Shown here: piece after piece, positions 20,732 through 57,238 of the stretch
Position numbering within the stretch: position 1 is the first letter of the stretch
Layout: every line of letters begins with the position of its first letter
From: Mesorhizobium sp. 65-26
GTDB taxonomy: Bacteria; Pseudomonadota; Alphaproteobacteria; Rhizobiales; Rhizobiaceae
DNA length: 64,000 bases
Assembly: GCF_001899205.1 (NCBI RefSeq)
Contig: NZ_MKVL01000010.1
Coordinates: 117,166 to 181,165 of the forward strand
Direction of reading: 5' to 3'
Made by a program: the position numbers and the translations under genes
The notes under the pieces: model-generated
Seen by the model: the letters and a program-made list of their open reading frames with translations, nothing else
Told to the model about the DNA's origin: nothing
Database searches by the model: none

Positions 20732-20752
20732 GGTGTCGTCCCGGTCAGTATG

Positions 20753-22169: not shown

Positions 22170-22181
22170 AATATCGATATT
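22170..22181. promoter_or_regulatory. Perfect 12-bp palindrome AATATCGATATT in AT-rich divergent promoter region (matA / SDR)
   Basis: Seen directly in a markedly AT-rich 22155-22236 segment. Confidence 0.55.
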
Positions 22182-22236
22182 AAATTACAATATCAAATAA
22201 AATCGCTAAAATAGGTACACCGAAGGAACACGATCG

Positions 22237-23010: not shown

Positions 23011-23034
23011 AAGACGCTCCGCCGTAAGGCAGGA

Positions 23035-23781: not shown

Positions 23782-23951
23782 AGCGGCTCCTGCTGCCTGC
23801 GGGGCATTGGCTTCAGGTCCGTTGCCGGTCCCGGCACCGCCGCTTGCTCCCTGCCTATCCGGCCCCGCGCGAATGCGGCGCGGCTGGCCGGAACCCACGC
23901 GCACCATACAGCGTCGGCCTTCCGACCCTCAAGAGGGCAAAGGCGAAGGCG

Positions 23952-41716: not shown

Positions 41717-42018
41717 AAGTAAAGTGATCAGTTTCACTGTCTTTTGACTTGCCAAGTCCAGCCGTCGCGCGCCTAATCAAGGTGCTCGCAATCGGGGGAT
41801 CGCGTGCGCGTCGCATCATACGCCGTCCGGGAATTTTCAAAGATGACCGCCACGCCGGTCGTGGCCCGCTTCGGCATGGCCCCAGCGGACATGTCGGCCC
41901 ATCGGCGCGGACAGGCAAGGGAAACCGCGACGTTCTGATTTCGCGCGTTGGTCGATCGGAGGCCCTGGGAAACAAGGCCGGCCCGATCGTCGGAAGCCAC
42001 GCGCCGGGGGAGGGGATC

Positions 42019-44595
42019 GTGGCAAGGAACATCGTTCTTCTGGCGGACGGCACCGGCAACAGCGCCGCGAAGGCCTTCAAGACCAATGTGTGGCGTCTCT
42101 ACCAGGCGCTGGACCTGACCGGCGGCGACCAGATCGCCGTCTTCAGCGACGGCGTCGGCACATCCTCGTTCAAGCCTTTCGAGATCATCGGGCTGGCGCT
42201 GGGCTTCGGCGTCAAGCGCCGGGTGCTGGCGCTCTACAAATTCCTCTGCCTCAACTACCAGAAGGGCGACCGAATCTTCGCCTTCGGCTTCAGCCGCGGC
42301 GCCTTTACCACCCGCGTCCTGGTCGGGCTGGTGGCGCGCGAGGGGCTGGTCGATTTCAAGTCGGAGGAGGAACTGGACCGCAACGCGCGCGCCGCCTACC
42401 GCGCCTATGGGGCCAAGGCTTTTCCCTCGAAACTGCCCTGGGTGGTGTTCGCGCGCTTTATCGCCCGGCGTTATTTCAATCTCTGGAACGAGATCACCGG
42501 CAGCCGCACCTACGAGCAGGTCCGGCCGGCGGGGGACGACGACCGCTCCGCGAAGCGGATGCGGATCGCCTTCGTCGGCGTCTGGGACACGGTCGCCGCC
42601 TACGGGCTGCCGATCGACGAATTAACCCGCGCCGTTGCCCAATGGGTATGGCCGATCATGTTCGGCAGCACCGGGCTGCTAGACAATGTCGAGCGCGCCC
42701 GGCAGGCCTTCAGCATCGACGACGAGCGGCGCACCTTCTTCCCGATCCGCTGGGACGAGGAGCCGTCGAAGCTCGGCCCCGGCGCCATCGACGCACGGTT
42801 GCTGCAGGTCTGGTTCGCCGGCTGCCATGCCAATGTCGGCGGCGGCTATCCGGACGACAGGCTCGCCCACATCCCGCTATGCTGGATGATCGGCGAGGCG
42901 GCCGAAAGCGGGCTGCGCTTCAAGACGGACGTCGTCGCCGACTACTGGGACTATGCCTCCGAGGCCGGGCGCATCTACGATTCACGCTCGGGCCTGGGCG
43001 TCTTCTACCGCTATCATCCGCGCCCCATCAAATGGCTGGTGGGCAGGGGCGTGACGCCGCTGGTCGATGCCAGCGTCGTCACCCGCATGGCGCGCGGCTG
43101 CGACGACTATGCACCCGTGGCGCTGCCGGAGCATATCGACGTGCTGACGCCGTTCGGCGAGCGCATCGCCTTCAACGGCATGCCCGGCATCGCGTTGACG
43201 CCACCCGACAGGCTGCCCCTGCCGGCCGGACGCGAACGCGATCTGCCGGCGATCGAGCGCAGCTTCCAGGTCTCGCTGACCAAGCTGCAGCAACAGAATG
43301 GCGGCGGTCGCCGCGAACGCCTTGCGCTGATGAACGATACTGTGTGGTGGCGGCGCGGGCTCTATTACGTGCTTCTCGCCATCGCCATGCTGTTCCTGGC
43401 CTTTCCGCTGGTCGCCGGCTACATGACGCTCGACATCGTCGGCCAGCTCGAACAATCGTCGAACGGGATCATCAGCCCGATCATCGGTTTCATCGGCGGT
43501 TTCCTGCCGAGCTTCGCGTCGCCATGGCTGGATGCGATGGCCCGCAATTCCATCCCGGCGGCGATCCTGGTCGCGTTGTTCTTCATCCTGCTCGCGGTCA
43601 ACAACGTGCTGCGCACCCGCATTGCCGACCGCGCGCGGGCCGCCTGGAACGATGCCGCCGGTCGCAACGCCGCCACGCTGCATTCGGGCCAGAGCGACGC
43701 GCATCGGCGAGCCGCGCTGATAACGGCCACGGCATCTGGCGTCGGCGCCGCCGCGCTGGCTGTCTCCGGCAATTACGCATGGCCATTCCTGGCCGTGGTG
43801 TGCATCGCAAGCCTGGCCGCCTTCGGCGCGCTGTCCAAGGGCTATCCGCAACACGGCGCCGGCAAAGTGCCACTGTCGTTGCGCATTGCCCGCGCCATCC
43901 GCGAGGACCGGCGCGCCAACCGGCTCTATCAAACGCTCCGCAAATGCGTGCTGCCCGGAGTCTTCCTGGCGCTGTCGATCGGCCTCATACTGCTGGGTCT
44001 CAACAAGGCGGTCTATGTGGTTGCCGATTCTGGCGGAGAGTTCTGCCCTGAACCGGCGAACCAGCCGGATCCACTCACCAAGCGCTATCCCGTCGAAAAG
44101 CTGCTCGCGGCGGATGCCGAGTTCAAGACCATCGATATGTGCACCGATACGGGTAGCTGGCTGCAGGAGGGCGTCCGCTATGAGGTCAGCATAAAGATCG
44201 ACAGCCAATGGCAGGACGGGGATCTGTGCGCCGATACACTCGGCGTCTACAAGCACAGCATCAAGCACAATCTCGCAACACCGCTCAAGCGCTGGTGGAG
44301 CCAACCCTATTTCAAACCCATCGCGCGGATCGGTCCCTATGGCAGTCACGAATACGTGCTCGAGCCCGTCGATCCGATATTTACCGGCACCTGCCTGAAC
44401 GGGGTGCTGAACGCCGAACTGACGCCGAAGGAGTCAGGCGAGCTCTATGTCTATGTCAACGACGCGGTGCTGATGCTGCCGGGCTGGACCCATTTCTTCT
44501 ACACGCACAACAGTGGCCGCAATGCCGGTTCCGCCAAGCTGCGCGTCAGGAGGGTGACGGTGTTCCCCGAAGGCGGACCGCCGAGGAGCCAGTAG
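42019..44595 (+). CDS. DUF2235 (Tle1-like alpha/beta hydrolase) with internal transmembrane segments and a C-terminal soluble domain
   Basis: GTG after GGGGAGGGG; NIVLLADGTGN, TNVWRLY, FGFSRGAF (GxSxG), GVWDTV, QVWFAGCHANVGGG; hydrophobic segments from about aa 445. Confidence 0.88.
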   Translation: MARNIVLLADGTGNSAAKAFKTNVWRLYQALDLTGGDQIAVFSDGVGTSSFKPFEIIGLALGFGVKRRVLALYKFLCLNYQKGDRIFAFGFSRGAFTTRVLVGLVAREGLVDFKSEEELDRNARAAYRAYGAKAFPSKLPWVVFARFIARRYFNLWNEITGSRTYEQVRPAGDDDRSAKRMRIAFVGVWDTVAAYGLPIDELTRAVAQWVWPIMFGSTGLLDNVERARQAFSIDDERRTFFPIRWDEEPSKLGPGAIDARLLQVWFAGCHANVGGGYPDDRLAHIPLCWMIGEAAESGLRFKTDVVADYWDYASEAGRIYDSRSGLGVFYRYHPRPIKWLVGRGVTPLVDASVVTRMARGCDDYAPVALPEHIDVLTPFGERIAFNGMPGIALTPPDRLPLPAGRERDLPAIERSFQVSLTKLQQQNGGGRRERLALMNDTVWWRRGLYYVLLAIAMLFLAFPLVAGYMTLDIVGQLEQSSNGIISPIIGFIGGFLPSFASPWLDAMARNSIPAAILVALFFILLAVNNVLRTRIADRARAAWNDAAGRNAATLHSGQSDAHRRAALITATASGVGAAALAVSGNYAWPFLAVVCIASLAAFGALSKGYPQHGAGKVPLSLRIARAIREDRRANRLYQTLRKCVLPGVFLALSIGLILLGLNKAVYVVADSGGEFCPEPANQPDPLTKRYPVEKLLAADAEFKTIDMCTDTGSWLQEGVRYEVSIKIDSQWQDGDLCADTLGVYKHSIKHNLATPLKRWWSQPYFKPIARIGPYGSHEYVLEPVDPIFTGTCLNGVLNAELTPKESGELYVYVNDAVLMLPGWTHFFYTHNSGRNAGSAKLRVRRVTVFPEGGPPRSQ

Positions 44596-44698: not shown

Positions 44699-45643
44699 TC
44701 AGACGGTGATCGCCTCCGGCCCGGCGCCGCAGACGATGGCGCAGACGCGCTCGCCCTGCTTCAGCCGCACGCGCCGGTTGGCGAGCGCGGCGATTGCGGC
44801 GGCGCCGCTGAGGTCGGCGGCGAGCCCCATCTCGAACCACAGGCTTTTCGCCGCGGCCAGCATCTCGGCATCGCTGACCAGCACGATCTCGTCGACATGG
44901 TCGCGAACCATCTCGAAGATGCGGTCGTCGGTCCTGGCGCAGGCCATGGTCGCGACGCTGGTGGTCACCTTGTCGAGGCCGACATTGTGGCCGGCTTCCA
45001 GCGCCTTGAGCAGCACGGGGCAGCCTTCGGCCTCAATGCCGACGACGCGTACCCGGGGCGCCAGCGCCTTGATCGCGGTGGCGACACCGCTGACCAGGCC
45101 GCCGCCGCCCATGGCGACGAGAATGGTGGTGACGTCGGGCATCTGGCCGAGGATCTCCAGGCCGACCGTGCCCTGTCCGGACACCACGTCCGGATCGGCG
45201 AAGGGGTGGAAATAAGCGGCTCCGGTCTTGCGCACGAAGTCTTGCGCGGCCGCATTCGCCTCATGCCAGACGGAGCCGACGATGTGGGTGTCCGCGCCCC
45301 ATGCCCGGAGCTTCTCGATCTTTGCTGGCGAGGCGTTGGAAGGCAGGAAGATGGTGGCCTTGACGCCGGCCATGTGGCCGGCGCGGGCCGTAGCGATGCC
45401 GTGGTTGCCGCCCGAGGCGGTGACGATGCCATGGCTGAGGGCGGCGGGGTCCATCGACAGCAGCCGATTGGTTGCGCCGCGCGCCTTGAACGAGCCGGTG
45501 ACCTGCAGCAACTCCAGCTTCAGCATCACCTCGGCGTCGCCGGGCAGCGGCGTCTTGAAGGCGCTGGCGGCGATCATCGGCGTGCGCCGCACCTGGCCCT
45601 CGATGCGCCGGGCGGCGGCGTGGATGTCGTCGAGGCCGATCAT
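44699..45643 (-). CDS. PLP-dependent threonine/serine dehydratase (EutB-like)
   Basis: KLELLQVTGSFKARGA, TASGGNHG, GQGTVGLE, MGGGGL. Confidence 0.93.
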   Translation of the reverse strand: MIGLDDIHAAARRIEGQVRRTPMIAASAFKTPLPGDAEVMLKLELLQVTGSFKARGATNRLLSMDPAALSHGIVTASGGNHGIATARAGHMAGVKATIFLPSNASPAKIEKLRAWGADTHIVGSVWHEANAAAQDFVRKTGAAYFHPFADPDVVSGQGTVGLEILGQMPDVTTILVAMGGGGLVSGVATAIKALAPRVRVVGIEAEGCPVLLKALEAGHNVGLDKVTTSVATMACARTDDRIFEMVRDHVDEIVLVSDAEMLAAAKSLWFEMGLAADLSGAAAIAALANRRVRLKQGERVCAIVCGAGPEAITV

Positions 45644-46647
45644 GCGAGCTCTCCCTCGTAGCGGCGCGCGACGGTGACGCAGCAATTGCCGATCACGACG
45701 CGGCCGGGCTGCCGGCGGCCATAGACGATGCCGTCGGAGAGGTAGAACACGGTTTCCGGCTCGCGCGCCGGGTTGGCGAGATTGTGGATGCGCCCGGCTG
45801 CCTGGCCGGCATGCACGGTTGCACCAAGCGCGTGGAACGGCTCGAACACGCCGTCGGTGGTGGCCAGCACGTAGCCGTCGTGGCCGGGAATGCGCAGGAT
45901 GTTTTCCGGCCGCGCCTCGGGCGTCTCGCCGGTGGGCGGTAGCACGCCGAAATGCCCGAGCACGTTGCGCACGCCGCGCCGGCAGATGGCGAGCGCGTCG
46001 AGCGAGACGGTGCCGGCGCCCGCCATCTCGGTGCCGACGGTGGTCAGGCCCGCCCGCACCGAGGTGGCGGTCGAGGTGCGCGGCTCGCCGAGATTGTCGA
46101 TGACCACGGTGAGCGGGGCGTCGAACGCCAGCACCGCGTCTATGTTGCGCTTGCGGTGCACGGGGTCGGGCGCTGGCTCGATGATGGCGCTGGGCAGGAT
46201 GTTGAGCGAGGAGCCGCCTGAATGGAGGTCGACATAGGCCTGGGCGAGCGGCATCACGACATCGCTGACATAGGCCGAGATCTGCTGCGTGATGGTACCG
46301 GCGGGGTCGCCGGGGAAGGTGCGGTTGAGGTTCAGCCCGTCGACCGGCGAGGTGCGCCGTCCGGCGAGCACTGCCGGCACGTTTATGGCCGGCAGGAAGA
46401 TGATGCGGCCGCTGACCATGCCGGGGTCGAGTTCGCGGATCAACTCGCCGAGCGTGATCGGCCCCTCGTACTCGTCGCCATGGTTGCCGGCCTGCAGGAT
46501 GACGGTGGGGCCCCTTCCATTGGCGATCACGGCGATCGGAATTCGGGTCGCGCCCCAGGCGTCCTCATGCGGCGAATGCGGTATGTCGACGAAGCCGACC
46601 TGTTTGCCGGTGCGGTCGAAGTCGATGGTGGTGCGGGCGGTGGACAT
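45640..46647 (-). CDS. Succinylglutamate desuccinylase/aspartoacylase-family deacylase (EutE/DoeB-like)
   Basis: GNHGDEYEGP, NLNRTFPGD, DLHSGG, TEMAG. Confidence 0.9.
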   Translation of the reverse strand: MSTARTTIDFDRTGKQVGFVDIPHSPHEDAWGATRIPIAVIANGRGPTVILQAGNHGDEYEGPITLGELIRELDPGMVSGRIIFLPAINVPAVLAGRRTSPVDGLNLNRTFPGDPAGTITQQISAYVSDVVMPLAQAYVDLHSGGSSLNILPSAIIEPAPDPVHRKRNIDAVLAFDAPLTVVIDNLGEPRTSTATSVRAGLTTVGTEMAGAGTVSLDALAICRRGVRNVLGHFGVLPPTGETPEARPENILRIPGHDGYVLATTDGVFEPFHALGATVHAGQAAGRIHNLANPAREPETVFYLSDGIVYGRRQPGRVVIGNCCVTVARRYEGELA

Positions 46648-46737
46648 GCTGGCCGTGTTTCCGTTGGCGAGGGAAGCCCGGCGGAGCCGGGATTGCGGGG
46701 AGGTCGCGGCGGCGGAGCCCAATGCTCCCCCGCCTTT

Positions 46738-46773
46738 GCGCATGACCCCGACGATCGCGACGGGATCATGCGC
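46738..46773. repeat. REP-like hairpin between SBP gene and deacylase
   Basis: GCGCATGACCCCG-N10-CGGGATCATGCGC (12/13 inverted match). Confidence 0.55.
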
Positions 46774-46790
46774 GAAATCAAGGTGCCGGG

Positions 46791-47579
46791 TCAGATCGGC
46801 GGCAGGCTCGGCAGGGTGGTGCCGATCCATTTCTGCGACAGCGCCGACAGCGAACCGTCCAGCATGCCGAGATGGATATAGGTATCGAGCCAGCGCAGCA
46901 ACTCAGGGCTGCCCTGCTGGATGCCTATGTAGCAGGGCGAGAACTGGAGGATGAACTTGGGCTTGAGCTGGACCTTGGGATCCTTGTCCATCAGGTCCTT
47001 GGCAACGACGTCGGCGGTGGCGAGCAACTGCGCCTGGCCCGAGGTGAAGGCGGCGGCGGCGGTCGCGTCATCGTCGAAGCGGACGATCTTGGCGTTGGGC
47101 GCGGCCTTGGTCAGTTCCAGGTCCTGCGTGGTGCCGCGCGCCACCGCGATGGTCTCGTCCTTGAGGTCGGTGGGGCTCTTCACCGCGATGCTGTCAGGAC
47201 CGAAGACGCCGATCGACAAGGCGGCATAGGGCGAGGTGAAGGCGATCTGCAGCGCACGCTCGGGCGTCGCGCCCATGGCGGCGATGACGATGTCGAGCCG
47301 GTCGGTGACCAGATAGGGCACGCGGTTGGCGCCGGTGATCTGCTGCAATTCGAGCTTCACGCCGAGCGCCTCGGCGATCTTTTTGGCCATGTCGACATCG
47401 AGGCCGACCGGCTCGTTCTTGGCGTCGACCGAGCCGAAGGGCGGCACGTCGATCGGCACGCCGATACGCACGGTGCCGCTGGAGAGGATTTTCTGCAGGT
47501 CGGCCGCGCGGGCCGGCAGGGCGGCGACCGCGCCGCAGAGCAGCACGGCCGCGAGGATCCTGGTGAGATGCTTTAACAT
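46791..47579 (-). CDS. Polar amino-acid ABC transporter substrate-binding protein (family 3)
   Basis: Signal peptide; GTVRIGV..DVPPFG, GLDVDMAK, ERALQIAFTSPY. Confidence 0.94.
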   Translation of the reverse strand: MLKHLTRILAAVLLCGAVAALPARAADLQKILSSGTVRIGVPIDVPPFGSVDAKNEPVGLDVDMAKKIAEALGVKLELQQITGANRVPYLVTDRLDIVIAAMGATPERALQIAFTSPYAALSIGVFGPDSIAVKSPTDLKDETIAVARGTTQDLELTKAAPNAKIVRFDDDATAAAAFTSGQAQLLATADVVAKDLMDKDPKVQLKPKFILQFSPCYIGIQQGSPELLRWLDTYIHLGMLDGSLSALSQKWIGTTLPSLPPI

Positions 47580-47608
47580 GGCAATTCCCCTGTGCTGGTT
47601 GATTTTTC

Positions 47609-48340
47609 TTAGTGGAGGACGGCGCTCAGGAAGCTCCTGAGTTCGGCCGTACGAGGCTCGACCAGGGTCTTACGCGCGGGCCCATCCTCATGGATGCGGC
47701 CCTGGTGCATGAAGATCACCCGGTCGGCTACGTTCTTGGCAAAGTTCATTTCGTGGGTGACGAGCATCATCGTCATGCCCTCGCTGGCGACACCTTCGAG
47801 CACGCGCAGCACCTCGCCGACCAGTTCCGGGTCGAGCGCCGAGGTAATCTCGTCGAAGAGCATCAGCGCCGGCTGCATGGCGAGCGAGCGGGCGATCGCC
47901 ACGCGCTGCTGCTGGCCGCCCGAGAGTTGGTCGGGATAGGCATCGAACTTGTCGGCGAGCCCCACCTTGGCGACCACCTCGCGGGCGACCTCGCGGGCGG
48001 CGGCCTTGTCCATCTTGCGCACCAGGCGCAGAGCCAGCGTCACGTTGCGCTCGACATTGAGGTGCGGGAAGAGGTTGTAGCTCTGGAAGACCATGCCGGC
48101 CCGCTGGCGCAGCAGGTTGAGATCCGCGCCCGGCGCGGTGACGTCGATGCCGTCGACGATGATGCGCCCGGCCTGGACCTTCTCCAGCCCGTTGATGCAG
48201 CGAAGCATGGTCGACTTGCCGGAGCCGGAGCGACCGATGATGGCGACGATCTCGCCCTTCTCGACGGTGAGCGAGATGCCTTTCAGCACCTCGACGGCGC
48301 CGTAGCGCTTGCGGATGTCGGCGAGCTCAACGAGCGACAT
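47609..48340 (-). CDS. Polar amino-acid ABC transporter ATP-binding protein
   Basis: GRSGSGKS, LSGGQQQRVAIAR, FDEITSALDPE. Confidence 0.96.
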   Translation of the reverse strand: MSLVELADIRKRYGAVEVLKGISLTVEKGEIVAIIGRSGSGKSTMLRCINGLEKVQAGRIIVDGIDVTAPGADLNLLRQRAGMVFQSYNLFPHLNVERNVTLALRLVRKMDKAAAREVAREVVAKVGLADKFDAYPDQLSGGQQQRVAIARSLAMQPALMLFDEITSALDPELVGEVLRVLEGVASEGMTMMLVTHEMNFAKNVADRVIFMHQGRIHEDGPARKTLVEPRTAELRSFLSAVLH

Positions 48341-48977
48341 GGAGTCTCCTTTCCAGCGCGCGGGCGAGCTGTGAGAGCGAGAAGCAGATGACGAAATAGA
48401 TCGCGGCGGCGGCGAGATAGACGGGCAGTGGCGCGAAGGTGGCGCCGCTGATGATCTGGCTGGCGCGGGTCAGTTCGACGAAGCCGATGAGCGCGGTGAG
48501 CGAGGTGTTCTTCACCAATTGCACCAGGAAGCCGACGGTGGGGGCGACGCTGATCAGCACGGCCTGCGGCAGCACCACATGGGTCAGCCGCTGCACGTAG
48601 GTGAGGCCGAGCGCCGCGCCCGCCTCCCACTGGCGGTCGGACACCGACTGCAGGCTGCCGCGCCAGATCTCGCCGAAGAAGGCCGAGGCATAGATCGACA
48701 GCGACAGCGCGGCCGCGGTCCAGGGCTGCACGGAGAGGCCGAACAGCGGCAGGCCGAAGAAGAAGACGAAGAGCTGGCCGAGCAGCGGCGTGCCCTGGAT
48801 CAAATTGATGTAGCCGACGGCCAGCCAGTTGAACGGCTTCAGCGGCACCACGCGCAGCACCGCCACGACGATGCCGAGCAGGCCACCGCCGACCATGGCG
48901 GCAAGTGCCAGCAGCAGCGTCCAGCGCGCGGCTTCGATGAGGTAGACGATGTCGGCGGCGCTGAATTCGCGGATCAT
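48327..48977 (-). CDS. Polar amino-acid ABC transporter permease
   Basis: MIREFS..., IQGTPLLGQL, EIWRG, QWEAG, VKNTSL. Confidence 0.94.
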   Translation of the reverse strand: MIREFSAADIVYLIEAARWTLLLALAAMVGGGLLGIVVAVLRVVPLKPFNWLAVGYINLIQGTPLLGQLFVFFFGLPLFGLSVQPWTAAALSLSIYASAFFGEIWRGSLQSVSDRQWEAGAALGLTYVQRLTHVVLPQAVLISVAPTVGFLVQLVKNTSLTALIGFVELTRASQIISGATFAPLPVYLAAAAIYFVICFSLSQLARALERRLHVAR

Positions 48978-49645
48978 CGGGCAGGCCTCCGCACGAAGAC
49001 AAGCCAGTACATGGCCGCGAAAAAGGCGCGGAAGCCGAGCGTCAGCACCAGGTAGGAGACGGTGATCAGCGCATAGGTCTCGAAGGAGCGGTAGGTGCGC
49101 GAGTCGATGAAGGCGGCCTGGTGGAACAGTTCGGTGGCGCCGATCGAGGAGACGACACTGGTGGCCAGCATGACCAGCACGAACTGGCTGGCGAGCGCCG
49201 GGTAAATGGCCTTCAGTGCCTGGAACAGCACGACATGACGGAAAGTCTGGCCCGCTGTAAGGCCAAGCGAGCGGCCGGCTTCGACCTGGCCCTGGCGCAC
49301 CGATTCGAAGCCGGCGCGCAGGATCTCGGCGCCATAGGCGCCCATGTTGACCGACAGCGCGATGAGGGCCGCCGTGTTGGCCGACAGCCTGATGCCGATC
49401 GAAGGCAGGCCGAAGAAGACGATGAACAACTGGACCAGCAGCGGTGTGTTGCGCAGAACCTCGACATAGACGCGGGCTGCGGCGCGTACCGGCGCCAGCG
49501 GGCTGACGGCCGCGATCGCCACGGCCAAGCCGATCGCCAGGCCGCACACCATGGTGACCAGCGAGAACTGCAGGGTCAGCAGGACGCCCTGCATGATCTC
49601 GCCGGTGTAGCGAAGCAGGACGTCAAATTTGAAATTGTAGCTCAT
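48974..49645 (-). CDS. Polar amino-acid ABC transporter permease
   Basis: LRNTPLLVQLF, AYGAEILRAG, GQVEAGRSLG. Confidence 0.94.
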   Translation of the reverse strand: MSYNFKFDVLLRYTGEIMQGVLLTLQFSLVTMVCGLAIGLAVAIAAVSPLAPVRAAARVYVEVLRNTPLLVQLFIVFFGLPSIGIRLSANTAALIALSVNMGAYGAEILRAGFESVRQGQVEAGRSLGLTAGQTFRHVVLFQALKAIYPALASQFVLVMLATSVVSSIGATELFHQAAFIDSRTYRSFETYALITVSYLVLTLGFRAFFAAMYWLVFVRRPAR

Positions 49646-49722
49646 GGATGCAGAGCGTCCTTTATGCAGCCACACCGATACAGCTATGTTCCGCACGGTA
49701 TTTGCTGGACATCAACGCTAAC

Positions 49723-49763
49723 GTCGCTTCATATGTGACGTCAAGCGTCACATATGAAGCGAC
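49723..49763. promoter_or_regulatory. Perfect 18-bp inverted repeat with 5-nt spacer, probable IclR operator
   Basis: GTCGCTTCATATGTGACG-TCAAG-CGTCACATATGAAGCGAC between divergent ABC permease and IclR; minus-strand TTGACG at 49739-49744. Confidence 0.8.
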
Positions 49764-49772
49764 AGAGCAATT

Positions 49773-50534
49773 ATGAACGACGAGAAGATGAACTACAGCG
49801 CGCCGGCCCTGGAAAAGGGGCTCGACATCCTCGAATTGCTGGCCAATGCCGGCCAGGCGATGGGCACGCGGCAGATCGCCGAGGAGCTCGGCCGCTCCAA
49901 GAACGAGATCTTCCGCATGGTTCATGTGCTGCTCGCGCGCGGCTACCTGCAGCGCGACGAGGGCGGCGAGGGGCTGATGCTGTCGAACAAGCTGTTCGGC
50001 CTCGGCATGCAGACGGCGCGCGCCCGCGACCTGGTCAGCACGGCGGCGCCCATCGTCGAGCGCTTTGCCGAGGAGGTGCACCAGGCGGCGCATCTCGTGG
50101 TGGCGCATCGCGGCGAGACGGTCATCATCGCCGCCGCTTCCGGCGGCGCCGACATGAACTTCTCGCTGAAGCTCGGCTATCGCCGGCCGCTTGCGGACGC
50201 CCATTCGGGGCTGGTGCTGATGGCTTTCCAGCCCAAGGCGGTGCGCGAGCGCATGGTCGCAGAATGCCTGGCGCTGATGCGCGAGCCGCCCGACCCGACG
50301 ACGCTTGCCGCCGAGCTCGACACGGTGCGGGCGCAAGGGGCGATCATCCATGAGAGCCGCGACATCATCGGCGTCACCGACCTCGTCTGCCCGATCCTTA
50401 CAAGCGACGGTCGCGCCGTGGCCTGCGTGACGGTCGCCGCCGTCAGCCGGCGCAGCGCCGCGCCCAATTTCGAGGCGATGCTGGAGCGGCTGAAGCTCGC
50501 CTGCGCCGACATCGCGCACGAACTCGCGGGGTAG
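49773..50534 (+). CDS. IclR-family transcriptional regulator
   Basis: YSAPALEKGLDILELLA, SKNEIFRMVHVLLARGYL, CPIL..DGRAVACVTV. Confidence 0.94.
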   Translation: MNDEKMNYSAPALEKGLDILELLANAGQAMGTRQIAEELGRSKNEIFRMVHVLLARGYLQRDEGGEGLMLSNKLFGLGMQTARARDLVSTAAPIVERFAEEVHQAAHLVVAHRGETVIIAAASGGADMNFSLKLGYRRPLADAHSGLVLMAFQPKAVRERMVAECLALMREPPDPTTLAAELDTVRAQGAIIHESRDIIGVTDLVCPILTSDGRAVACVTVAAVSRRSAAPNFEAMLERLKLACADIAHELAG

Positions 50535-50592
50535 GGGGCGCCAGGCCTGCAAGGCACGGACCAAGGCGGCGCTTGCGGCAACGGCCATCGCA

Positions 50593-51750
50593 TCACTCCA
50601 CCACGATGAGGTCTCGCTGGGTTCGGCCGAGCAGTTCGGCGCCCTCGTCGGTGACCAGCACATTGTCGATGATGCGGGCGCCGAGCCCTTCCGGGCCGAC
50701 GAAGACCGGGGGCTCCACCGTCAGCACCATGCCGGCCTTCAGCAGATACGGGCTGTCGCCGATCATGTGCAGCGGTTCGGCCCAGCTCGGCGGAAAGCCC
50801 GGTCCCAGCGAATAGCCCGACGTATGGACGCGGTAGGGCTCGAGGCCGGCGTTGCCGATGATCGCGCGCGCCGCCTGGTGCGGCACCGTTGCCGGCACGC
50901 CGTCGCGGATGGCGGCGATCATGGCGTCGGCGGCGCGCCGCACCACATCGTGGAGCTCGACCATGCGCGCGGTCGGGCGGCCGAGCGCGAACTGGCGCCC
51001 GAGTGTGGCCGTATAACGGTTGAAGGCAGCGCCGAGCTCGATGCTGCCGAAATCGCCGGGCGCGAGCCTGCGTGCCGTCGGCGCGCCGTGGCTGTAGGCC
51101 GAGCGCGGGCCAGAAACGAGGTTGATCGGACTGGCGGCGATGCCACTGCCATTGGCGAGCAGGGTCTCGTAGACGCCGCCGGCGAGCGCAAGCTCGGTGC
51201 GGCCGGCGGCAAGATCGCCGGCGAAGCGCGCCATGCCGAGATCGGCCAGCGCGGCGGCTTGCCTGACGAAGCCGATCTCGGCCGGCGACTTCACCAGCTT
51301 CAGCCCGGCGATCAGCTCGCTGGCATCGGCGGCAAGGGCAGCGCCAAGCACCTCGCGCAGCGCGAGATAGTGATGGGGATGGAGGTAGTAGGCCGGAACC
51401 TCCACGCCGACGCGGCCGCCGAGCAGGCCATGGCGCCGGGCCAGCCTCGCGAAGGCGGCGACCGGATCCTCGTTTTCGCCGCCGCCGAAGCCGTGCACCT
51501 CGTCGGCGAGGGAATCAGTCTCGAATTCATGCACCTCGCCCTGCCTGGCAAGCATCACCAGCGGCGCCCCCTCGGGGCCGACCAGCAGGCACTGGAATTC
51601 CTGGTAGCTCTTGGCGTCGGAGCCGGTCAGCCAATGGATCGAAGCGGGATGGATGGCGACCAGCCAATCCAGGTCGCGCGCGGCCATCTCATTGCGGACG
51701 CGAGCGAGGCGTTCAGCGAATTCGGTGGCGGTGAAATCGTGCCTCGACAT
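50593..51750 (-). CDS. M24-fold hydrolase, creatinase/ectoine hydrolase (EutD/DoeA)-like
   Basis: EFAERLARVR..M, LKLVKSPAEI, HTSGYSLGPGFPPSWAE (similar to EutD GYxIGxxYPPxWxE), TVEPPVF; several canonical M24 metal ligands replaced. Confidence 0.85.
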   Translation of the reverse strand: MSRHDFTATEFAERLARVRNEMAARDLDWLVAIHPASIHWLTGSDAKSYQEFQCLLVGPEGAPLVMLARQGEVHEFETDSLADEVHGFGGGENEDPVAAFARLARRHGLLGGRVGVEVPAYYLHPHHYLALREVLGAALAADASELIAGLKLVKSPAEIGFVRQAAALADLGMARFAGDLAAGRTELALAGGVYETLLANGSGIAASPINLVSGPRSAYSHGAPTARRLAPGDFGSIELGAAFNRYTATLGRQFALGRPTARMVELHDVVRRAADAMIAAIRDGVPATVPHQAARAIIGNAGLEPYRVHTSGYSLGPGFPPSWAEPLHMIGDSPYLLKAGMVLTVEPPVFVGPEGLGARIIDNVLVTDEGAELLGRTQRDLIVVE

Positions 51751-51763
51751 GGATCCGCCGCCT

Positions 51764-52972
51764 TCAATCCCGCGTGACCGCCATGGCTTCGATCTCGATG
51801 AGCAGGTTCTCAAAGGCGAAGCCGGCAACGCGGATGGCCGTCACCGCTGGGCCTGCCCCGGGGTAGAATTCGCGCTGGACGCGCTCGATCACCGCCCGCG
51901 TCGCCTCGATCCGTGGCCAGTCACCCTCGGCGTGGTAGTAGATGTAGAGCTTGGCGACGTCGCTTTCGTCGAGGCCGCCCTCGGCCAGCGTGCGGCGGAT
52001 GAAGTTGAAGACGTTGCGGGTCTGCGTCTCCATGTCGTCGCCGACGGCGCGGGCCTTGTCGTCGGCGGAAATCTGGCCGCCGATGAAGGCGAGCCTGCCG
52101 ATCTTCCAGCCTTGCGTGAACTGGGTGTTGGGAATGCTCCAGTCCCAATGGTTGGCGGGCTGCAGCCGCTGCTTGTCCTCGCCCAGCACGCCGATGCCCT
52201 CGACCTGGATCAGCTCGTCGGCGTCGCCCATGCCCTGGATGCGCAGGCCGGCGCCGGCCGCCGAAGGCACGGCCATGTAGCGGCGGCGCACATTGGTCAT
52301 CTTCTCCCAATAGTCGGTGACCTCGCGACCCTGGCCGAAGAAGCGGAAATAGGTGTTCTGCCGCATCAGGCTGTGGCGGTCGCCGCCGCCGGCGCGCAGC
52401 ATGGTGTCGAGGTTGCGGAAGGCCTCGTCGGTCTGCACCTCGATGTCGCCGAGGCCCAGCACCTTGCCATGGCTGTCGAGCGAACGCTGGCCGCCGATGA
52501 ACAGCATGTCGCCAACCTTCCAGCCCTGGACGAAGGGCAGGGCGCGCTGCCAGCGCCAGTGGCCGGGTGGGTCGAGAAGCTCGCGCGGGGTGTCGTCCGT
52601 CACCACCCAGGCGTCGATCATCAGCAGCGCGCCGGGCTTGTCGAGCCCGCAGCGTATTTCCGTCGTGGTCGGTCCGGGAGCGCTGAAGATGCCGGCGCGA
52701 ACCGCGTCCAGTTCTTCCAGGAAGGCGCCGACGGCGTCGGTCTCGCAGGTGAAGTAGACATTGTGTTTGACGATGTCGGCCATGCTCGCGCCGGCCTGCC
52801 GGAGCAATCTTGCGAGATTTTCGAAGATCAGCCGGGCCTGCCCGGCGACGCCGGTCGCGGCGATGTCGCCCTTGTCGTCCGTCGCCATCAGGCCGCCGAC
52901 GAAGAGGAGGCCGCCGGCCGCCACTGCCTGGGGCGCGCTGTCCTTGACGATGCTGAAACTCCGCATGCGCAC
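51764..52972 (-). CDS. Triple-domain Rid (YjgF/YER057c/UK114) protein
   Basis: Three consecutive Rid units: LFVGG..QARLIFENL..DIVKHNVY..LLMIDA; LFIGGQ..QTDEAFRNL..LIQVEG; AFIGGQ..QTRNVFNFI..DVAKLYIY..LIEIEA. RBS GGGGAGG before GTG. Confidence 0.9.
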   Translation of the reverse strand: MRMRSFSIVKDSAPQAVAAGGLLFVGGLMATDDKGDIAATGVAGQARLIFENLARLLRQAGASMADIVKHNVYFTCETDAVGAFLEELDAVRAGIFSAPGPTTTEIRCGLDKPGALLMIDAWVVTDDTPRELLDPPGHWRWQRALPFVQGWKVGDMLFIGGQRSLDSHGKVLGLGDIEVQTDEAFRNLDTMLRAGGGDRHSLMRQNTYFRFFGQGREVTDYWEKMTNVRRRYMAVPSAAGAGLRIQGMGDADELIQVEGIGVLGEDKQRLQPANHWDWSIPNTQFTQGWKIGRLAFIGGQISADDKARAVGDDMETQTRNVFNFIRRTLAEGGLDESDVAKLYIYYHAEGDWPRIEATRAVIERVQREFYPGAGPAVTAIRVAGFAFENLLIEIEAMAVTRD

Positions 52973-52994
52973 GTTGGCATCCTCCCCTTTTTGT

Positions 52995-53016
52995 ACTTAC
53001 TTACATGCAAGTAAGT
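52995..53016. promoter_or_regulatory. TetR-type operator palindrome ACTTACTT-ACATGC-AAGTAAGT
   Basis: 8-bp inverted repeat 23 bp upstream of the Rid start, overlapping a minus-strand TTGACG (53021-53026) promoter spacing; divergent TetR gene follows. Confidence 0.75.
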
Positions 53017-53120
53017 CGTGCGTCAATCGAGCGAGAAGATGGGTGGAGGTCGGCGCATGGGCATCGTCGAGCGGCTGTCTTTCTTTCTGGAAGCGCGCTG
53101 TTCGCCTGCGGCGCCCACGG

Positions 53121-53783
53121 ATGGAAAACCGCTCCGCGGTTTTCCGGGAATCGCTCTATGCTCCAGGCATGGAAGAGATCGATACGCGTCAGGCAATCAA
53201 GGACACGGCGCTGGAGCTGCTGGTGCGGCGCGGCTATCGCGGCACCAGCTTTGGCGATATTTCGACGGCGCTCAGCACCACGCGCGCCAACATCCACTAC
53301 CATTTCGGCAACAAGCAGGCCCTGGTGGAGGAGGTTCTGGACGATTACATGCGCGCGACACTCGGCGCGCTGCGCTCGGTGTGGGATGCCGAAGGTATCG
53401 ATCTCGCCGGCCAGATCGCGGCGATGATCGGCTACAGCCGCGCCCGCTTCATGCATTTCAACCCGACCGGCCAGGAGGGGCAGGCCTGGAGCCTGATCTC
53501 GCGGCTGAGGCAGGACGCGGACCTGCTCGGCCCGCGCGGCCGCGCCATGCTCGACCATTTCGGCGCGGAGCTTTCAGCATTGTTCTCGGAGGCGCTGTCG
53601 GCTGCGGCGAAGCGGGGCGAGCTTCGCGCCGACATCGTCCCGGCCGACGCGGCGCTGCTGTTTGCGGCGATCGCCGACAACGCCGCGCCGATCACGCTCG
53701 CCGAAGGTGGCTTCGAGCGGCTGGAGCGCGCCTATGACGCGCTGGGCCGCATGATCGGCGCGGGACGGGCCGACCGGAACTAG
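53121..53783 (+). CDS. TetR/AcrR-family transcriptional regulator
   Basis: IKDTALELLVRRGYRGTSFGDIS..LSTTRANIHYHFGNKQAL; start 53121 or 53169. Confidence 0.93.
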   Translation: MENRSAVFRESLYAPGMEEIDTRQAIKDTALELLVRRGYRGTSFGDISTALSTTRANIHYHFGNKQALVEEVLDDYMRATLGALRSVWDAEGIDLAGQIAAMIGYSRARFMHFNPTGQEGQAWSLISRLRQDADLLGPRGRAMLDHFGAELSALFSEALSAAAKRGELRADIVPADAALLFAAIADNAAPITLAEGGFERLERAYDALGRMIGAGRADRN

Positions 53784-54489: not shown

Positions 54490-55212
54490 ATGAACAGGAC
54501 GACTTCCGGCAAGCCTTCCAGCCGATCCGCCGGACGCGGCGGGGGCATGACGCTGAGCGAGGCGCACGTGGCGCGCACGCTGCGCGAGGTGGCCGATGCC
54601 GGGCCGACGCCCGGTATGGTTCACATGGTCGACGCCGACTATGTCCGCATCCGCGACGAGATACTGGCCGCGGCGCCGCCCGGCCCGCTGAAGCTGTTCG
54701 CCTATGGTTCGCTGCTGTGGAAACCGGCGGCGGAGGTGAGGGGCGGCGAGCGCGTGGTGGCGGCCGGCTGGCACCGCGCCTTCTGCTTCAGTGTCCTGCG
54801 CTATCGCGGCACGGTGGAGCGGCCGGGCCTGATGATGGCGCTCGACCGGGGCGGCCAGTGCCAGGGCATGGTGTTCGAGATCGCCGAGCCGGTGGCGGCC
54901 AATCTCGAGGCGCTGCTGCGGCGCGAGATGACGATCCTGCCGCCGGTCAACGTGCCGCGCTGGCTGCATGTGCGCGGCGCCGGCGGCGCCATGCGGGCGC
55001 TGGGCTTCGTCGTCGATCCGGCCAATCCGCGTTATGTCGGCAAGCTCCCGAAGCGCGCGGTGGCGGCGACGCTCGCCACCGCCGTGGGCCACTGGGGATC
55101 TGGCGCGCAGTATCTCTATGAGACCATCCGGCACCTCGACGCCTGCGGCATCCGCGACCGCAACCTGTGGGAATTGCAGGCGATGGTGGCCGAAGCGATC
55201 GAGGCCGGTTGA
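54490..55212 (+). CDS. chaC: Gamma-glutamylcyclotransferase, ChaC family
   Basis: LFAYGSLLWKP, GWHRAFC, RYRGTVERPGLMMALDRGG.C.G, LLRREM, G..AQYLYET. Confidence 0.9.
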   Translation: MNRTTSGKPSSRSAGRGGGMTLSEAHVARTLREVADAGPTPGMVHMVDADYVRIRDEILAAAPPGPLKLFAYGSLLWKPAAEVRGGERVVAAGWHRAFCFSVLRYRGTVERPGLMMALDRGGQCQGMVFEIAEPVAANLEALLRREMTILPPVNVPRWLHVRGAGGAMRALGFVVDPANPRYVGKLPKRAVAATLATAVGHWGSGAQYLYETIRHLDACGIRDRNLWELQAMVAEAIEAG

Positions 55213-55228
55213 GACGGGGGGTAGCCGC

Positions 55229-57238
55229 ATGACCGATTTCCACCTCGTCGAGGCATCCATCGCGGCGACGCGGCAGGCTCTGGAGGAAGGTGTCGTCACC
55301 AGTGTCGAACTGGTGGCCGCGTGCCTGAGGCGCATCGGCTTCTACGACCGTCAAGGCATTGCGCTCAATGCCGTTCCCGTGCTGAACCCCGCCATGTTCG
55401 AGGAGGCGCTGGCCTCGGACCTGCGGCGCCGCGAGGGCAGGGCGCTGGGACCTCTCGACGGCATCCCCTACACGGCCAAGGATAGCTACAAGGCGAAGGG
55501 CCTTACCGTCGCCGCCGGTTCGCCGGCCTTCGAGCATCTGGTCGCTGGCGGTGATGCCTTCACCATCGCCCGGCTGCGGGCGGCCGGCGCGGTGCTGATC
55601 GGGCTCACCAACATGTCGCCCATGGCCAATGGCGGCATGCAGCGCGGCGTCTACGGCCGCGCCGAAAGTCCCTACAACGGCGACTGGCTGACCGCCGCCT
55701 TCGGCTCCGGCTCGTCGAACGGTTCGGGCACGGCGACGGCCGCGTCCTTCGCCGTCTTCGGGCTGGGCGAGGAGACATGGTCGTCCGGCCGGGCACCGGC
55801 CTCCAACAACGCGCTGGTCGCCTACACGCCGTCGCGCGGCGTGATCTCGGTGCGTGGCAACTGGCCCCTCGTGCCGACCATGGATGTGGTCGTGCCGCAC
55901 ACACGCAGCGTCGCCGATATGCTGGAACTGCTCGATGTCATCGTCGCCGACGATCCGGACACGCGCGGCGACTTCTGGCGGAGCCAGCCCTGGGTGCCAA
56001 TCCCCAAGGCCTCCTCGTTGCGGCCGTCGAGCTACGCTGAGCTGGAACTGGACGGCGCGCTTGCCGGCAAGCGGCTTGGCGTGCCGAAGATGTATATCGG
56101 GCGCGACGCCGGCTCGGCGCGGCCGATCGAAACCCGTGCTTCGGTGCTGGCGCTGTGGCGGCAGGCTGCGCGCGATCTGGAAGCGCTCGGCGCCGAGGTC
56201 GTCGAGGTCGATTTTCCCGTGGTCTCGAATTACGAGCGCGACCGGCCGGGCACGCGCTCGATGGTCGATCGGGGGCTGGTGCCGGCCGAATTCGCGGAGC
56301 GCGAACTCTGGGATCTGTCGATCTGGGCCTGGGACGATTTCCTGCGCGCCAACGGCGATCCGGCGATCCCCGATCTCGCCTCGGTCGACGGCGTGAAGAT
56401 CTTCCCGCCGCCGCCAGGCGCCCTGCCGGACCGCTACGGCGCCGACGATCTCGACCTCGCCGACTATGTGGCGCGCGCCAGGCAAGGCGTCGTGCCGCTG
56501 GAGCGGATCCCGGCGATCGAGGACGGCATCAGGGGGCTGGAGGCGACGCGGCGCATCGATTTCGAGGAATGGCTCGAGGCAAGCGGGCTCGACGCGGTGG
56601 TGCTGCCGGCCGTCGCCGATGTCGGCCCGGCCGACGCCGACGTCAACGAGGCCTCGGCCGATCTTGCCTGGCGCAACGGCACATGGGTGGCCAACGGCAA
56701 TCTGGTCTGGCGCCATCTCGGCATCCCGACCGTGACGGTGCCGATGGGCACGATGGCCGATATCGGCATGCCGGTCGGCCTCACCTTCGCCGGCAAGGCC
56801 CATGATGATACGGCGCTGCTGCGCATGGCGGGCCACTACGAGCGGCACACTGGGCGACGCACCCAGCCGCCGCGCACGCCCGAACTGCCTGGCGATGTCT
56901 TTGCCGCGAGGGCCGGGACATCGCAGGCCCAAGAGGGTGACGTGCCCGACGTCCGGCTGAGCGCCGGAACGACGCACCGGGGCGGCGAGGACGAAATCCT
57001 GGTCATACTCCAAGTCAAGCCTGCGGGCGGGCAGGTGGCCGTGCATGTCAACGGCATCCCGTTGGCGGTGCATGACGCGGGCGGACGCCTCGAAGGGCGG
57101 ATTTCGGTCCCGGCTTCGACCCATCAAGGTGTTCACAGCACCTGGCGAGGCGCCTACGGCTCGATCGTCACCGCGGTGGCGCGGCTGCCGGGTGGGCTGG
57201 CAGCTGGAGCTTACGTCGTTACCGGAGGGATCGGATGA
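55229..57238 (+). CDS. Amidase signature family protein with ~110-aa C-terminal extension
   Basis: LDGIPYTAKD (Lys), GSGSSNGSG (cis-Ser), LGEETWSSGRAPAS (nucleophile Ser), PVGLTFAG. Confidence 0.92.
   Translation: MTDFHLVEASIAATRQALEEGVVTSVELVAACLRRIGFYDRQGIALNAVPVLNPAMFEEALASDLRRREGRALGPLDGIPYTAKDSYKAKGLTVAAGSPAFEHLVAGGDAFTIARLRAAGAVLIGLTNMSPMANGGMQRGVYGRAESPYNGDWLTAAFGSGSSNGSGTATAASFAVFGLGEETWSSGRAPASNNALVAYTPSRGVISVRGNWPLVPTMDVVVPHTRSVADMLELLDVIVADDPDTRGDFWRSQPWVPIPKASSLRPSSYAELELDGALAGKRLGVPKMYIGRDAGSARPIETRASVLALWRQAARDLEALGAEVVEVDFPVVSNYERDRPGTRSMVDRGLVPAEFAERELWDLSIWAWDDFLRANGDPAIPDLASVDGVKIFPPPPGALPDRYGADDLDLADYVARARQGVVPLERIPAIEDGIRGLEATRRIDFEEWLEASGLDAVVLPAVADVGPADADVNEASADLAWRNGTWVANGNLVWRHLGIPTVTVPMGTMADIGMPVGLTFAGKAHDDTALLRMAGHYERHTGRRTQPPRTPELPGDVFAARAGTSQAQEGDVPDVRLSAGTTHRGGEDEILVILQVKPAGGQVAVHVNGIPLAVHDAGGRLEGRISVPASTHQGVHSTWRGAYGSIVTAVARLPGGLAAGAYVVTGGIG

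Follow-up and report, generated by a model that had tools for sequence, protein, structure and literature searches.

A 64,000-nt stretch of the genome of Mesorhizobium sp. 65-26 (contig NZ_MKVL01000010.1; 67% G+C; hereafter the window) contains a cluster of ten genes at 44699-53783. The original prediction, made from the sequence, was that of a pathway similar to ectoine catabolism which is rewired for a different substrate. We analyzed this cluster and its relatives in other genomes. Our preferred interpretation, to which we assign a probability of about 50%, is that the cluster codes for the substrate-inducible uptake and catabolism of a carboxylate-bearing, N-substituted amino-acid derivative. 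The enzymes are similar to DoeA, DoeB and EutB, but the pathway would not be that for ectoine.

All ten genes have intact reading frames and a codon-position GC that is typical of real genes, a measure used here to tell genes from antisense open reading frames (ORFs). Gene starts were set by the lengths of orthologues and by start/stop overlaps. The family of each gene is backed by Pfam and NCBIfam, and every gene that had been named from the sequence is present. The genes form two operons on the minus strand, each with a divergently oriented regulator gene on the plus strand. As originally stated, these regulators belong to the IclR and TetR families.

The first operon consists of two genes. 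One (rid3, 51764-52972, minus strand) codes for a protein of 402 aa with three tandem Rid (YjgF/L-PSP) domains (Pfam Ribonuc_L-PSP, three times), here called triple Rid or Rid3. The other (50593-51750, minus strand) starts 13 nt past the rid3 stop codon and codes for a "pita-bread" hydrolase of 385 aa, which combines the Pfam domains Creatinase_N and M24 and is assigned to a metal-free, DoeA-like type (see below). We refer to it as M24. The divergent regulator gene (53169-53783, plus strand) codes for the TetR family protein (Pfam TetR_N), which has 204 aa when read from the second ATG, a start chosen to fit the lengths of its orthologues (199-207 aa).

The second operon opens with permease 1 of an ATP-binding cassette (ABC) importer (48974-49645, minus strand; 223 aa; Pfam BPD_transp_1), which has a 4-nt overlap with permease 2 (48327-48977, minus strand; 216 aa; BPD_transp_1). 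These are followed, all on the minus strand, by the ATPase (47609-48340; ABC_tran) and a periplasmic solute-binding protein (SBP) of family 3 and of the polar amino-acid type (46791-47579; 262 aa with a signal peptide; SBP_bac_3). The last two genes code for a zinc deacylase of the AstE/AspA family which is similar to DoeB/EutE (45640-46647; 335 aa; AstE_AspA_cat), and for a fold-type II pyridoxal phosphate (PLP) enzyme, similar to threonine/serine dehydratases and to EutB (44699-45643; 314 aa; PALP). The ATG of the PLP enzyme gene overlaps the stop codon of the deacylase gene (ATGA). The IclR family regulator (49773-50534, plus strand; HTH_IclR and IclR_C) is encoded divergently from this operon. 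A G+C-rich gap of 143 nt (46648-46790) separates the stop codon of the SBP from the start of the deacylase. This is unusual in a tightly packed operon, and an internal promoter or some regulatory element may be located in the gap. A scan for sigma-70 promoters and terminators returned nothing exceeding shuffled expectation.

The M24 protein contains the motif SGYSLGPGFPPSWAEP that had been highlighted from the sequence. It is annotated as "Xaa-Pro dipeptidase" by PGAP and JGI. Both models for ectoine hydrolase score far below their cut-offs (DoeA_2, NF038259, 137 bits vs 575; DoeA, TIGR02993, 129 vs 613). Among proteins with solved structures (phmmer), prolidase scores 112 bits, DoeA 105 bits and creatinase (1CHM) 29 bits. 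The sequence identity to DoeA (6TWK) is 29.7%. At the five metal-ligand positions of prolidases (D, D, H, E, E), M24 has E238, T249, Y313, E346 and I361 (aligned to 1PV9 and 5GIU). Three of the five ligands are missing, and one more is Glu rather than Asp, so that the binuclear metal site cannot form. Several features are common to M24 and DoeA (6TWK) but are not found in the aligned prolidases: Glu at the first metal site, GY in place of GH, a four-residue insertion (PPxWxE) and the loss of the last Glu. In this shared signature, there is no acid at positions D2 or E2, and the general-base His (H221 in M24) is kept. The active-site residues of M24 are invariant across ten orthologues. There is one clear active-site difference between the two proteins, E346 of M24 being a Met in DoeA. 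Judged from the sequence, E346 suggests an extra cationic group, or a guanidinium, on the substrate. DoeA (EutD) converts ectoine to N-alpha-acetyl-2,4-diaminobutyrate. When an AlphaFold model of M24 (pLDDT 81) was compared to PDB by Foldseek, the four best matches all were DoeA from H. elongata (6YO9/6TWK; E 7e-31, TMq 0.72). The lead over prolidases is narrow. Creatinases match the model with a TM-score of 0.68 at 18-20% sequence identity.

The annotation of M24 as a dipeptidase would fit ordinary scavenging of peptides and N-acyl amino acids, with M24 as a prolidase, the deacylase as an AstE-like aminoacylase, and the dehydratase together with Rid degrading serine or threonine. Prolidases have the top phmmer scores for M24, and threonine dehydratase and Rid are a classical pairing (PMC4433059). 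We consider this very improbable, given that the metal ligands of M24 are lost (E238, T249, Y313, E346, I361) and that all three Rid domains lack the key arginine (see below). In addition, the identity of at least 60% that M24 shows over four phyla is unusually high for a generic peptidase.

The deacylase contains the motif NHGDEYEGP, as had been noted, and is found by Pfam AstE_AspA_cat with 122 bits. Its current label is generic ([quoted passage not shown]). The only NCBIfam match is to DoeB (TIGR02994, 280 bits), which is below the cut-off of 402.7. The protein is nearer to the uncharacterised protein 3CDX (268 bits by phmmer, 41.8% sequence identity) than to EutE from R. pomeroyi (6TWL, 223 bits, 39.6%). 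It retains both the HxxE...H zinc site and the catalytic Glu (H56, E59, H142 and E207, identical in EutE and 3CDX), and R109 is also identical to the aligned EutE residue. By these residues, the protein belongs to the AstE/AspA zinc deacylase superfamily. The PLP enzyme (Pfam PALP, PF00291, 265 bits) scores best against the generic NCBIfam model PRK08246 (305 bits vs a cut-off of 331). The EutB models NF005680 and TIGR02991 give 250 and 230 bits, below a cut-off of 413. The best relatives in PDB, with about 170 bits, are threonine dehydratases and serine racemases. The Schiff-base lysine is K53 in the sequence SFKARG, and the protein is a fold-type II PLP dehydratase by family.

The components of the ABC importer likewise stay below the cut-offs for the ectoine transporter. 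The SBP scores 116 bits against the LAO model, 94 against the cystine model and only 47 against EhuB (cut-off 191). It is thus not EhuB, as had been suspected from its sequence. For the ATPase, the scores are 313 bits for GlnQ, 283 for TcyN and 274 for EhuA (cut-off 345), all below cut-off. For both permeases, a cystine permease model is found: with 170 bits, as the best match, for permease 2 (EhuC: 142 vs a cut-off of 197), and with 162 bits for permease 1 (EhuD: 142 vs a cut-off of 205). The SBP keeps the carboxylate-binding Arg (R77 in HisJ) and T120/T121. The ammonium-binding Asp (D161 in HisJ) is not clearly kept, the residues being A-D here and N-S in other classes of loci, with an alignment ambiguity of one position. 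An SBP that has the carboxylate-binding Arg and lacks a clear ammonium-binding Asp fits an N-substituted amino acid as ligand. We rejected a more specific ligand assignment, because only the Arg is clearly kept and the Asp alignment is ambiguous.

A divergent but genuine cluster for ectoine and 5-hydroxyectoine has to be considered at this point. M24 would open hydroxyectoine, the deacylase would form 3-hydroxy-2,4-diaminobutyrate, and the EutB-like enzyme would dehydrate the latter, which is a chemically suitable substrate for an enzyme of the threonine dehydratase type. DoeA is the best structural match of M24, DoeB is the sole NCBIfam match of the deacylase (39.6% identity to EutE), and the PLP enzyme has EutB as its second-best model. 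Also, an M24 paralog encoded on an Aminobacter plasmid (44.5% sequence identity) is located 6 kb from genes called ehuBCDA by PGAP. Nevertheless, we regard this explanation as unlikely. Four equivalog cut-offs are missed widely (137/575, 280/403, 250/413, and 47/191 for EhuB). The original claim that the enzymes are relatives of DoeA/EutD, DoeB/EutE and EutB thus stands in the sense that they are relatives, not orthologues, all scoring much lower than the NCBIfam equivalog cut-offs. The rest of the window has no gene for EutA, EutC, an aminotransferase (Atf), a semialdehyde dehydrogenase (Ssd), or a regulator of the MocR (EnuR) or AsnC type; their absence had been noted for the close neighborhood and holds for all 64 kb. 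Furthermore, M24 has a Glu (E346) where DoeA has a Met, and Planctomycetota and Comamonadaceae from freshwater, groundwater and wastewater often have its orthologues, in many cases without the deacylase.

The Aminobacter paralog is part of an island on plasmid p1 of Aminobacter niigataensis (NZ_CP132959.1, ca. 138-153 kb; loci L086/L088 in our set). The island codes for three M24 paralogs, one of which is the 44.5%-identical protein of the metal-free type mentioned above. It also contains two pairs of an acyl-CoA dehydrogenase-like protein and a flavin reductase, an amidohydrolase and a polysaccharide deacetylase. No DoeA or DoeB equivalog is called in this island, which may represent another variant of an ectoine-like pathway. 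On plasmid pShin-02 of Shinella sp. HZN7 (L090, 103762-106021), a 30%-identical M24 is encoded directly before a class II histone deacetylase-type gene, the product of which is similar to acetylpolyamine amidohydrolase. An aldehyde dehydrogenase and an FAD oxidoreductase follow, and a polyamine-type ABC system precedes. This is a further pairing of an M24 protein with an N-deacetylase. The plasmid-encoded M24 paralogs from Agrobacterium, Shinella and Aminobacter were rejected as a guide to the substrate; they are found in other clusters and only show that the pairing of M24 with a deacylase recurs.

The conservation of the cluster was analyzed by a scan with an alignment of M24 orthologues, using one genome per species. 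It returned 215 relatives, and the best 80 of these (60-83% sequence identity) were examined. They are from Rhizobiales, Rhodospirillales, Comamonadaceae and other Betaproteobacteria, many Planctomycetota, and a Chthoniobacter (Verrucomicrobiota). Planctomycetota and Comamonadaceae from freshwater, groundwater and wastewater commonly have M24 orthologues. Carriers that are in culture include Mesorhizobium sp. B2-1-8 and B2-1-1 (in which the cluster is plasmid-borne), M. qingshengii, Mesorhizobium sp. NZP2298, Taklimakanibacter albus and Bosea sp. WAO. Neighbors were counted by tblastn with the window proteins within 10 kb of M24. Of the 80 loci, 51 have the SBP, 44 the ATPase, 41 the permeases, 34 the deacylase, 33 IclR, 25 the PLP enzyme, 24 the triple Rid and 19 TetR. 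The core that stays invariant is M24 with a transporter. In 23 of 25 loci, the PLP enzyme gene directly follows the deacylase gene. Of the loci, 41 extend for 6.5 kb or more to each side of M24 (full-flank loci); among these, the PLP enzyme gene is always accompanied by the deacylase (20/20), and IclR is encoded beside the ABC genes in 25.

At least three gene orders (classes A, B and C) occur across Alpha- and Betaproteobacteria. Class A, which includes the window, is found in Mesorhizobium and Devosia and has the order TetR<, Rid3, M24, IclR<, perm, perm, ATPase, SBP, AstE, PLP (the genes marked by < are on the opposite strand in the window). Class A' is the same without AstE and PLP. Class B, from Rhodoferax, Comamonadaceae and some Alphaproteobacteria, has IclR<, perm, perm, ATPase, (SBP), M24, SBP, a creatininase-family gene, AstE, PLP. 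Class C (Tagaea and others) has SBP, AstE, PLP, IclR<, perm, perm, ATPase, SBP, M24. Class D (Bosea) is reduced to IclR<, SBP, M24, and class E (Planctomycetota) to pairs of either MFS and M24 or Rid3 and M24. Enzymes are also exchanged. At L018 and L075, a class V PLP enzyme takes the place of the dehydratase. The Chthoniobacter locus (L043) has the order M24, short-chain dehydrogenase/reductase (SDR), single RidA, M20 deacylase (ArgE/DapE-type), oxidoreductase, class V PLP enzyme. The recurrence in varied orders and the non-orthologous replacements establish a functional link of M24 with a deacylase and a PLP enzyme.

The set might, in principle, be one of chance neighbors that do not form a pathway. 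The locus is split by an IclR gene on the opposite strand, there is the 143-nt gap between SBP and deacylase, and the immediate flanks are unrelated. This is barely credible, as the cluster recurs across phyla in at least three gene orders, which is more than expected by chance. The strict linkages between AstE and PLP and among TetR, Rid3 and M24, the overlaps of start and stop codons and the non-orthologous replacements also speak against it. What was found is thus neither the canonical ectoine pathway nor a set of genes that is restricted to one genome: co-conservation, which had been proposed as a check, is seen among the best 80 of the 215 M24 relatives.

Eleven loci contain a creatininase-family gene (PF02633; L035, L044, L064, L069, L070, L075, L078, L033, L025, L036 and L053; an example is L075, 12005-12832). 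It is located between a second, related SBP and the deacylase, at loci without triple Rid or TetR. The hosts are Betaproteobacteria and some Alphaproteobacteria. The creatininase-family genes and the second SBP in class B suggest that two related forms are imported. They may also point to a pathway for guanidino compounds, or for compounds similar to creatine and creatinine, with M24 as an amidinohydrolase that releases urea and the betaproteobacterial creatininase-family enzyme opening the cyclic form. Creatinase uses two Glu and one His. M24 has a Creatinase_N domain, is metal-free and has two active-site Glu (E238, E346) that could bind a guanidinium, and creatinases are clear structural matches of its model (TM-score 0.68). 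Overall, this explanation is rather unlikely. M24 scores only 29 bits against creatinase 1CHM, and the creatininase homolog has 93 bits vs a cut-off of 235 and is nearer to MftE. The window lacks a creatininase gene, there are no urease or sarcosine oxidase genes nearby, and the deacylase and the dehydratase are left unexplained.

A sulfur-containing substrate was considered as well, such as a thiazoline or thiazolidine carboxylate or an N-acyl-S-substituted cysteine, its degradation ending with C-S cleavage or beta-elimination to pyruvate. For both permeases, the best relatives with a name are cystine permeases (170 bits and 162 bits), the SBP is similar to proteins that bind cystine or cysteine, and the class V PLP enzyme that occurs at L018, L075 and L043 is similar to cysteine desulfurase. 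At one locus (L061), two M24 copies are found with an SsuA-like SBP, an FMN reductase, a luciferase-like monooxygenase and an M20 deacylase. Still, we consider a sulfur-specific pathway clearly improbable. The similarities are weak and below cut-off, polar amino-acid ABC systems are mutually alike, L061 is a single locus, and the window has no sulfur-specific features. At L061 (8601-18569), the two M24 copies (62% identity class) flank the FMN reductase, the deacetylase, a LysR regulator and the luciferase-like monooxygenase. With 510 bits vs a cut-off of 412, the M20 protein qualifies as a bona fide acetylornithine deacetylase of the ArgE type. With the adjoining SsuA-like SBP, the layout is similar to that of a sulfur-scavenging cluster. 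More generally, the neighbors found elsewhere (creatininase, SDR, M20, class V PLP enzyme, FMN reductase and luciferase-like monooxygenase, MFS) give hints but no answer concerning the substrate, and deriving it from them was abandoned.

The triple Rid protein, currently labelled "RidA family protein", belongs to a small family (483 matches), with at least 68% sequence identity from Mesorhizobium to Schlesneria. Imine hydrolysis by RidA requires Arg105, which binds the carboxylate of the substrate (Niehaus 2015, PMC4433059). The corresponding positions of the three domains are occupied by T103, G240 and V377 (aligned to E. coli RidA). The single Rid at L043 retains Arg105 in the same alignment. 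Each of the three domains has an Arg four residues past the Arg105 column, which hints that the substrate anchor may be shifted. Glu120 is retained only in domain 3, and conservation peaks in domains 2 and 3. The Rid groups 4-7 lack Arg105 and imine hydrolysis activity, and their functions are described as completely unknown (PMC4433059). Fusions named "3x-RidA", e.g. EF_0115, have been reported and are presumed to be covalent trimers (PMC4433059).

The triple Rid has three Pfam stretches and, according to an AF2 model (pLDDT 89, pTM 0.90), folds as a single-chain pseudo-trimer. Its best full-length matches in PDB are the chorismatases FkbO and Hyg5 (TM-score 0.55-0.68, 14-15% sequence identity). 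No chorismatase match was obtained among the Pfam and NCBIfam models. The best match of a single domain is RutC (75 bits with NCBIfam; Foldseek TMt ca. 0.9). Chorismatases act by hydrolysing an enol ether, with release of pyruvate.

With respect to gene neighborhood, rid3 is directly upstream of M24 in 23 of 24 loci and is accompanied by TetR in all 14 full-flank loci which have it. The association with the PLP enzyme is loose: among the 41 full-flank loci, 10 have both genes, 4 only rid3, 10 only the PLP enzyme gene and 17 neither. The original prediction had Rid resolving the enamine or imine after beta-elimination, in place of EutC. This part is not supported, because Arg105 is absent from all three domains and the gene is tied to M24 and TetR rather than to the PLP enzyme. 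Most likely, the triple Rid acts together with M24 and is not a classical deaminase. The genomic context of rid3 in Planctomycetota was also considered as a clue to its role but is uninformative, as the gene often stands alone.

Both intergenic regions contain a candidate operator. Between permease 1 and iclR, there is a perfect 18-nt inverted repeat (GTCGCTTCATATGTGACG, 5 nt, CGTCACATATGAAGCGAC) at 49723-49763. Half-sites of this repeat (with up to 4 mismatches) are found at the same intergenic position in class A loci. Between rid3 and tetR, there is a 22-nt palindrome (ACTTACTTACA|TGCAAGTAAGT) at 52995-53016. All 19 loci which have the TetR-Rid3 pair carry it at this position (with up to 5 mismatches), and no other locus does. 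We predict that the IclR regulator controls the operon for importer, deacylase and dehydratase via the inverted repeat, while the TetR regulator controls rid3-M24 via the conserved palindrome. Having two modules with separate repressors suggests that there may be two effectors, e.g. the substrate and an intermediate. A perfect 10-nt inverted repeat (GGAAAACCGC / GCGGTTTTCC), distinct from the palindrome, is located at 53123-53145, a short way upstream of the start preferred for tetR.

Taken together, we propose the following scheme for the catabolism of an N-substituted amino-acid derivative, with import, hydrolytic C-N opening, deacylation and beta-elimination as the most likely order. The substrate is probably a cyclic amidine, an imino acid or a guanidine, which upon opening yields an N-acyl amino acid that bears a leaving group at the beta position. 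The specific substrates named originally (an ectoine analogue, a cyclic amidine or an N-acyl-2,3-diaminopropionate) are guesses. The compound would be taken up by the family 3 SBP and its ABC importer, as judged from their families. M24, which shares its active-site signature with DoeA, may then hydrolyse a non-peptide C-N bond without a metal, using the conserved His221 and the constellation of E238, Y313, W323, E325 and E346. The zinc deacylase, with its conserved catalytic residues, would remove the acyl group. Finally, the threonine dehydratase-like PLP enzyme is predicted to eliminate the beta-substituent and ammonia to yield a 2-oxo acid. The order of ring opening, deacylation and beta-elimination had been proposed originally, and it fits the DoeA-type signature, the EutE zinc site, the PLP lysine and the non-orthologous replacements. 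The core of M24 and transporter, the two regulatory modules, and the betaproteobacterial creatininase-family hydrolase with its second SBP go beyond what had been described.

The triple Rid is expected to work with M24 and not as a classical 2-aminoacrylate deaminase. Our best guess, by analogy with chorismatases and RutC, is that it hydrolyses or tautomerises an enamine, enol or imine group, either on the substrate or on the product of M24. It is tempting to speculate, though doubtful, that M24 and the Arg105-less Rid3 are a new two-enzyme unit which degrades a widespread cyclic amidine or imino-acid metabolite, with Rid3 acting like a chorismatase and without an anchor for an alpha-carboxylate. 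In that case, the metabolite would occur in soil, freshwater and wastewater and would be used by Rhizobiales, Comamonadaceae, Planctomycetota and Verrucomicrobiota. A first function would be assigned to an Arg-less Rid clade, and a new compound similar to compatible solutes would be found.

Several observations argue against the proposed catabolic scheme. In sequence score, prolidases (112 bits) and DoeA (105 bits) are equally near to M24, so that its DoeA-like assignment depends on motifs and on a marginal Foldseek lead. The scheme does not explain the role of Rid3, and in Planctomycetota rid3 is often not found beside M24. It also does not explain the creatininase-family gene and the second SBP in eleven loci. 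Many loci (Bosea, Planctomycetota) have only M24 and a transporter, which implies that the steps of the deacylase and the PLP enzyme are not obligatory or that they are encoded elsewhere. Finally, the PLP enzyme might instead racemise its substrate, or its substrate might not be hydroxylated.

The rest of the window codes for a Tle1-like DUF2235 protein, DUF1801 proteins, ChaC, an amidase, sugar ABC systems, BtpA, PfkB, malonate genes, a catechol dioxygenase and an autotransporter; nothing in it is ectoine-related. The gene that adjoins the cluster (41749-44595) codes for a protein of 948 aa with the catalytic domain of a Tle1-like phospholipase (DUF2235) of type VI secretion systems. The annotated part of the window showed no genes for such a system. 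On the other side, an ORF for a ChaC-like gamma-glutamylcyclotransferase (54490-55212) overlaps a 756-aa amidase-domain ORF (54968-57238) by ca. 245 nt, so that the amidase start is probably further downstream. ChaC and the amidase were rejected as pathway components, since they are near M24 in none of the 80 loci; the same count was obtained for Tle1. A set of genes for malonate utilisation is located at 19205-23928 (an AMP-binding protein similar to malonyl-CoA synthetase, malonyl-CoA decarboxylase, an SDR and a GntR/FCD regulator). The window sequence is present in metagenomes from bioreactors, wastewater and biofilms (the matching runs are all DNA).

A full-text literature search returned no description of this cluster, which is therefore best compared to systems that share some of its parts. 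M24 resembles creatinase (1CHM) by its architecture of Creatinase_N and M24 domains and by the absence of a metal site, and the 11 related loci with a creatininase-family gene recall the system of creatinine amidohydrolase (PF02633). It differs from both by the score of 29 bits to 1CHM, by a creatininase homolog that is below cut-off and absent from the window, and by the lack of genes for sarcosine or urea metabolism. The triple Rid is similar to the 3x-RidA fusions (PMC4433059) in having three tandem Rid domains in one chain, a fold that is backed by the model. Unlike RidA, it lacks Arg105 three times (as do Rid4-7), has Glu120 in domain 3 only, and is genomically tied to M24 and TetR, not to a PLP or FAD enzyme. 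With the chorismatases FkbO and Hyg5 (4BPS, 5A3K, 5AG3), it shares the predicted organization as a single-chain pseudo-trimer of YjgF-like domains. It differs from them in sequence (14-15% identity, TM-score 0.55-0.68, no common family model), and there are no chorismate-related genes nearby. A TetR regulator gene that is divergent from an operon for a Rid protein and a C-N hydrolase is also seen in the Rut pyrimidine pathway (RutR, RutC and RutB). Here, however, RutA, RutF and RutG are missing, the hydrolase is an M24 protein and not of the isochorismatase type, and the scores are below cut-off.

The closest parallel is the breakdown of ectoine and of 5-hydroxyectoine by EhuABCD-EutABCDE (or DoeABCD), which has EutD and EutE as a hydrolase-deacetylase pair, according to the accounts of Schwibbert 2011 (PMC3187862) and, via PMC8739950, Mais 2020. 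Both have a metal-free M24 protein with the DoeA signature, an AstE-family zinc deacylase (ca. 40% identical to EutE), an EutB-like fold-type II PLP enzyme and an ABC importer of the polar amino-acid type in one locus. In the cluster described here, every component is below the equivalog cut-off, and M24 is only 29.7% identical to DoeA, with Glu346 instead of Met. EutA, EutC, Atf/DoeD, Ssd/DoeC, EnuR and AsnC are missing, and the regulators are IclR and TetR. M24 is encoded 4 kb from the deacylase in a separate operon, and there is an additional triple Rid. The range of taxa and habitats (Planctomycetota, Comamonadaceae, wastewater) is also different. We conclude that the locus is a distinct, tightly conserved sister system to the DoeA/DoeB pair. 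To our knowledge, this enzyme pair is so far associated with only one class of substrates, the ectoines. The tight conservation, together with a transporter, regulators and operators of its own, indicates that a second natural substrate for DoeA/DoeB-type chemistry probably exists, one that is probably consumed in soils, lakes and wastewater plants. The labels "Xaa-Pro dipeptidase" and "RidA family protein" are generic and likely misleading. Identification of the substrate would correct hundreds of annotations and would also give a function to a Rid protein without Arg105.

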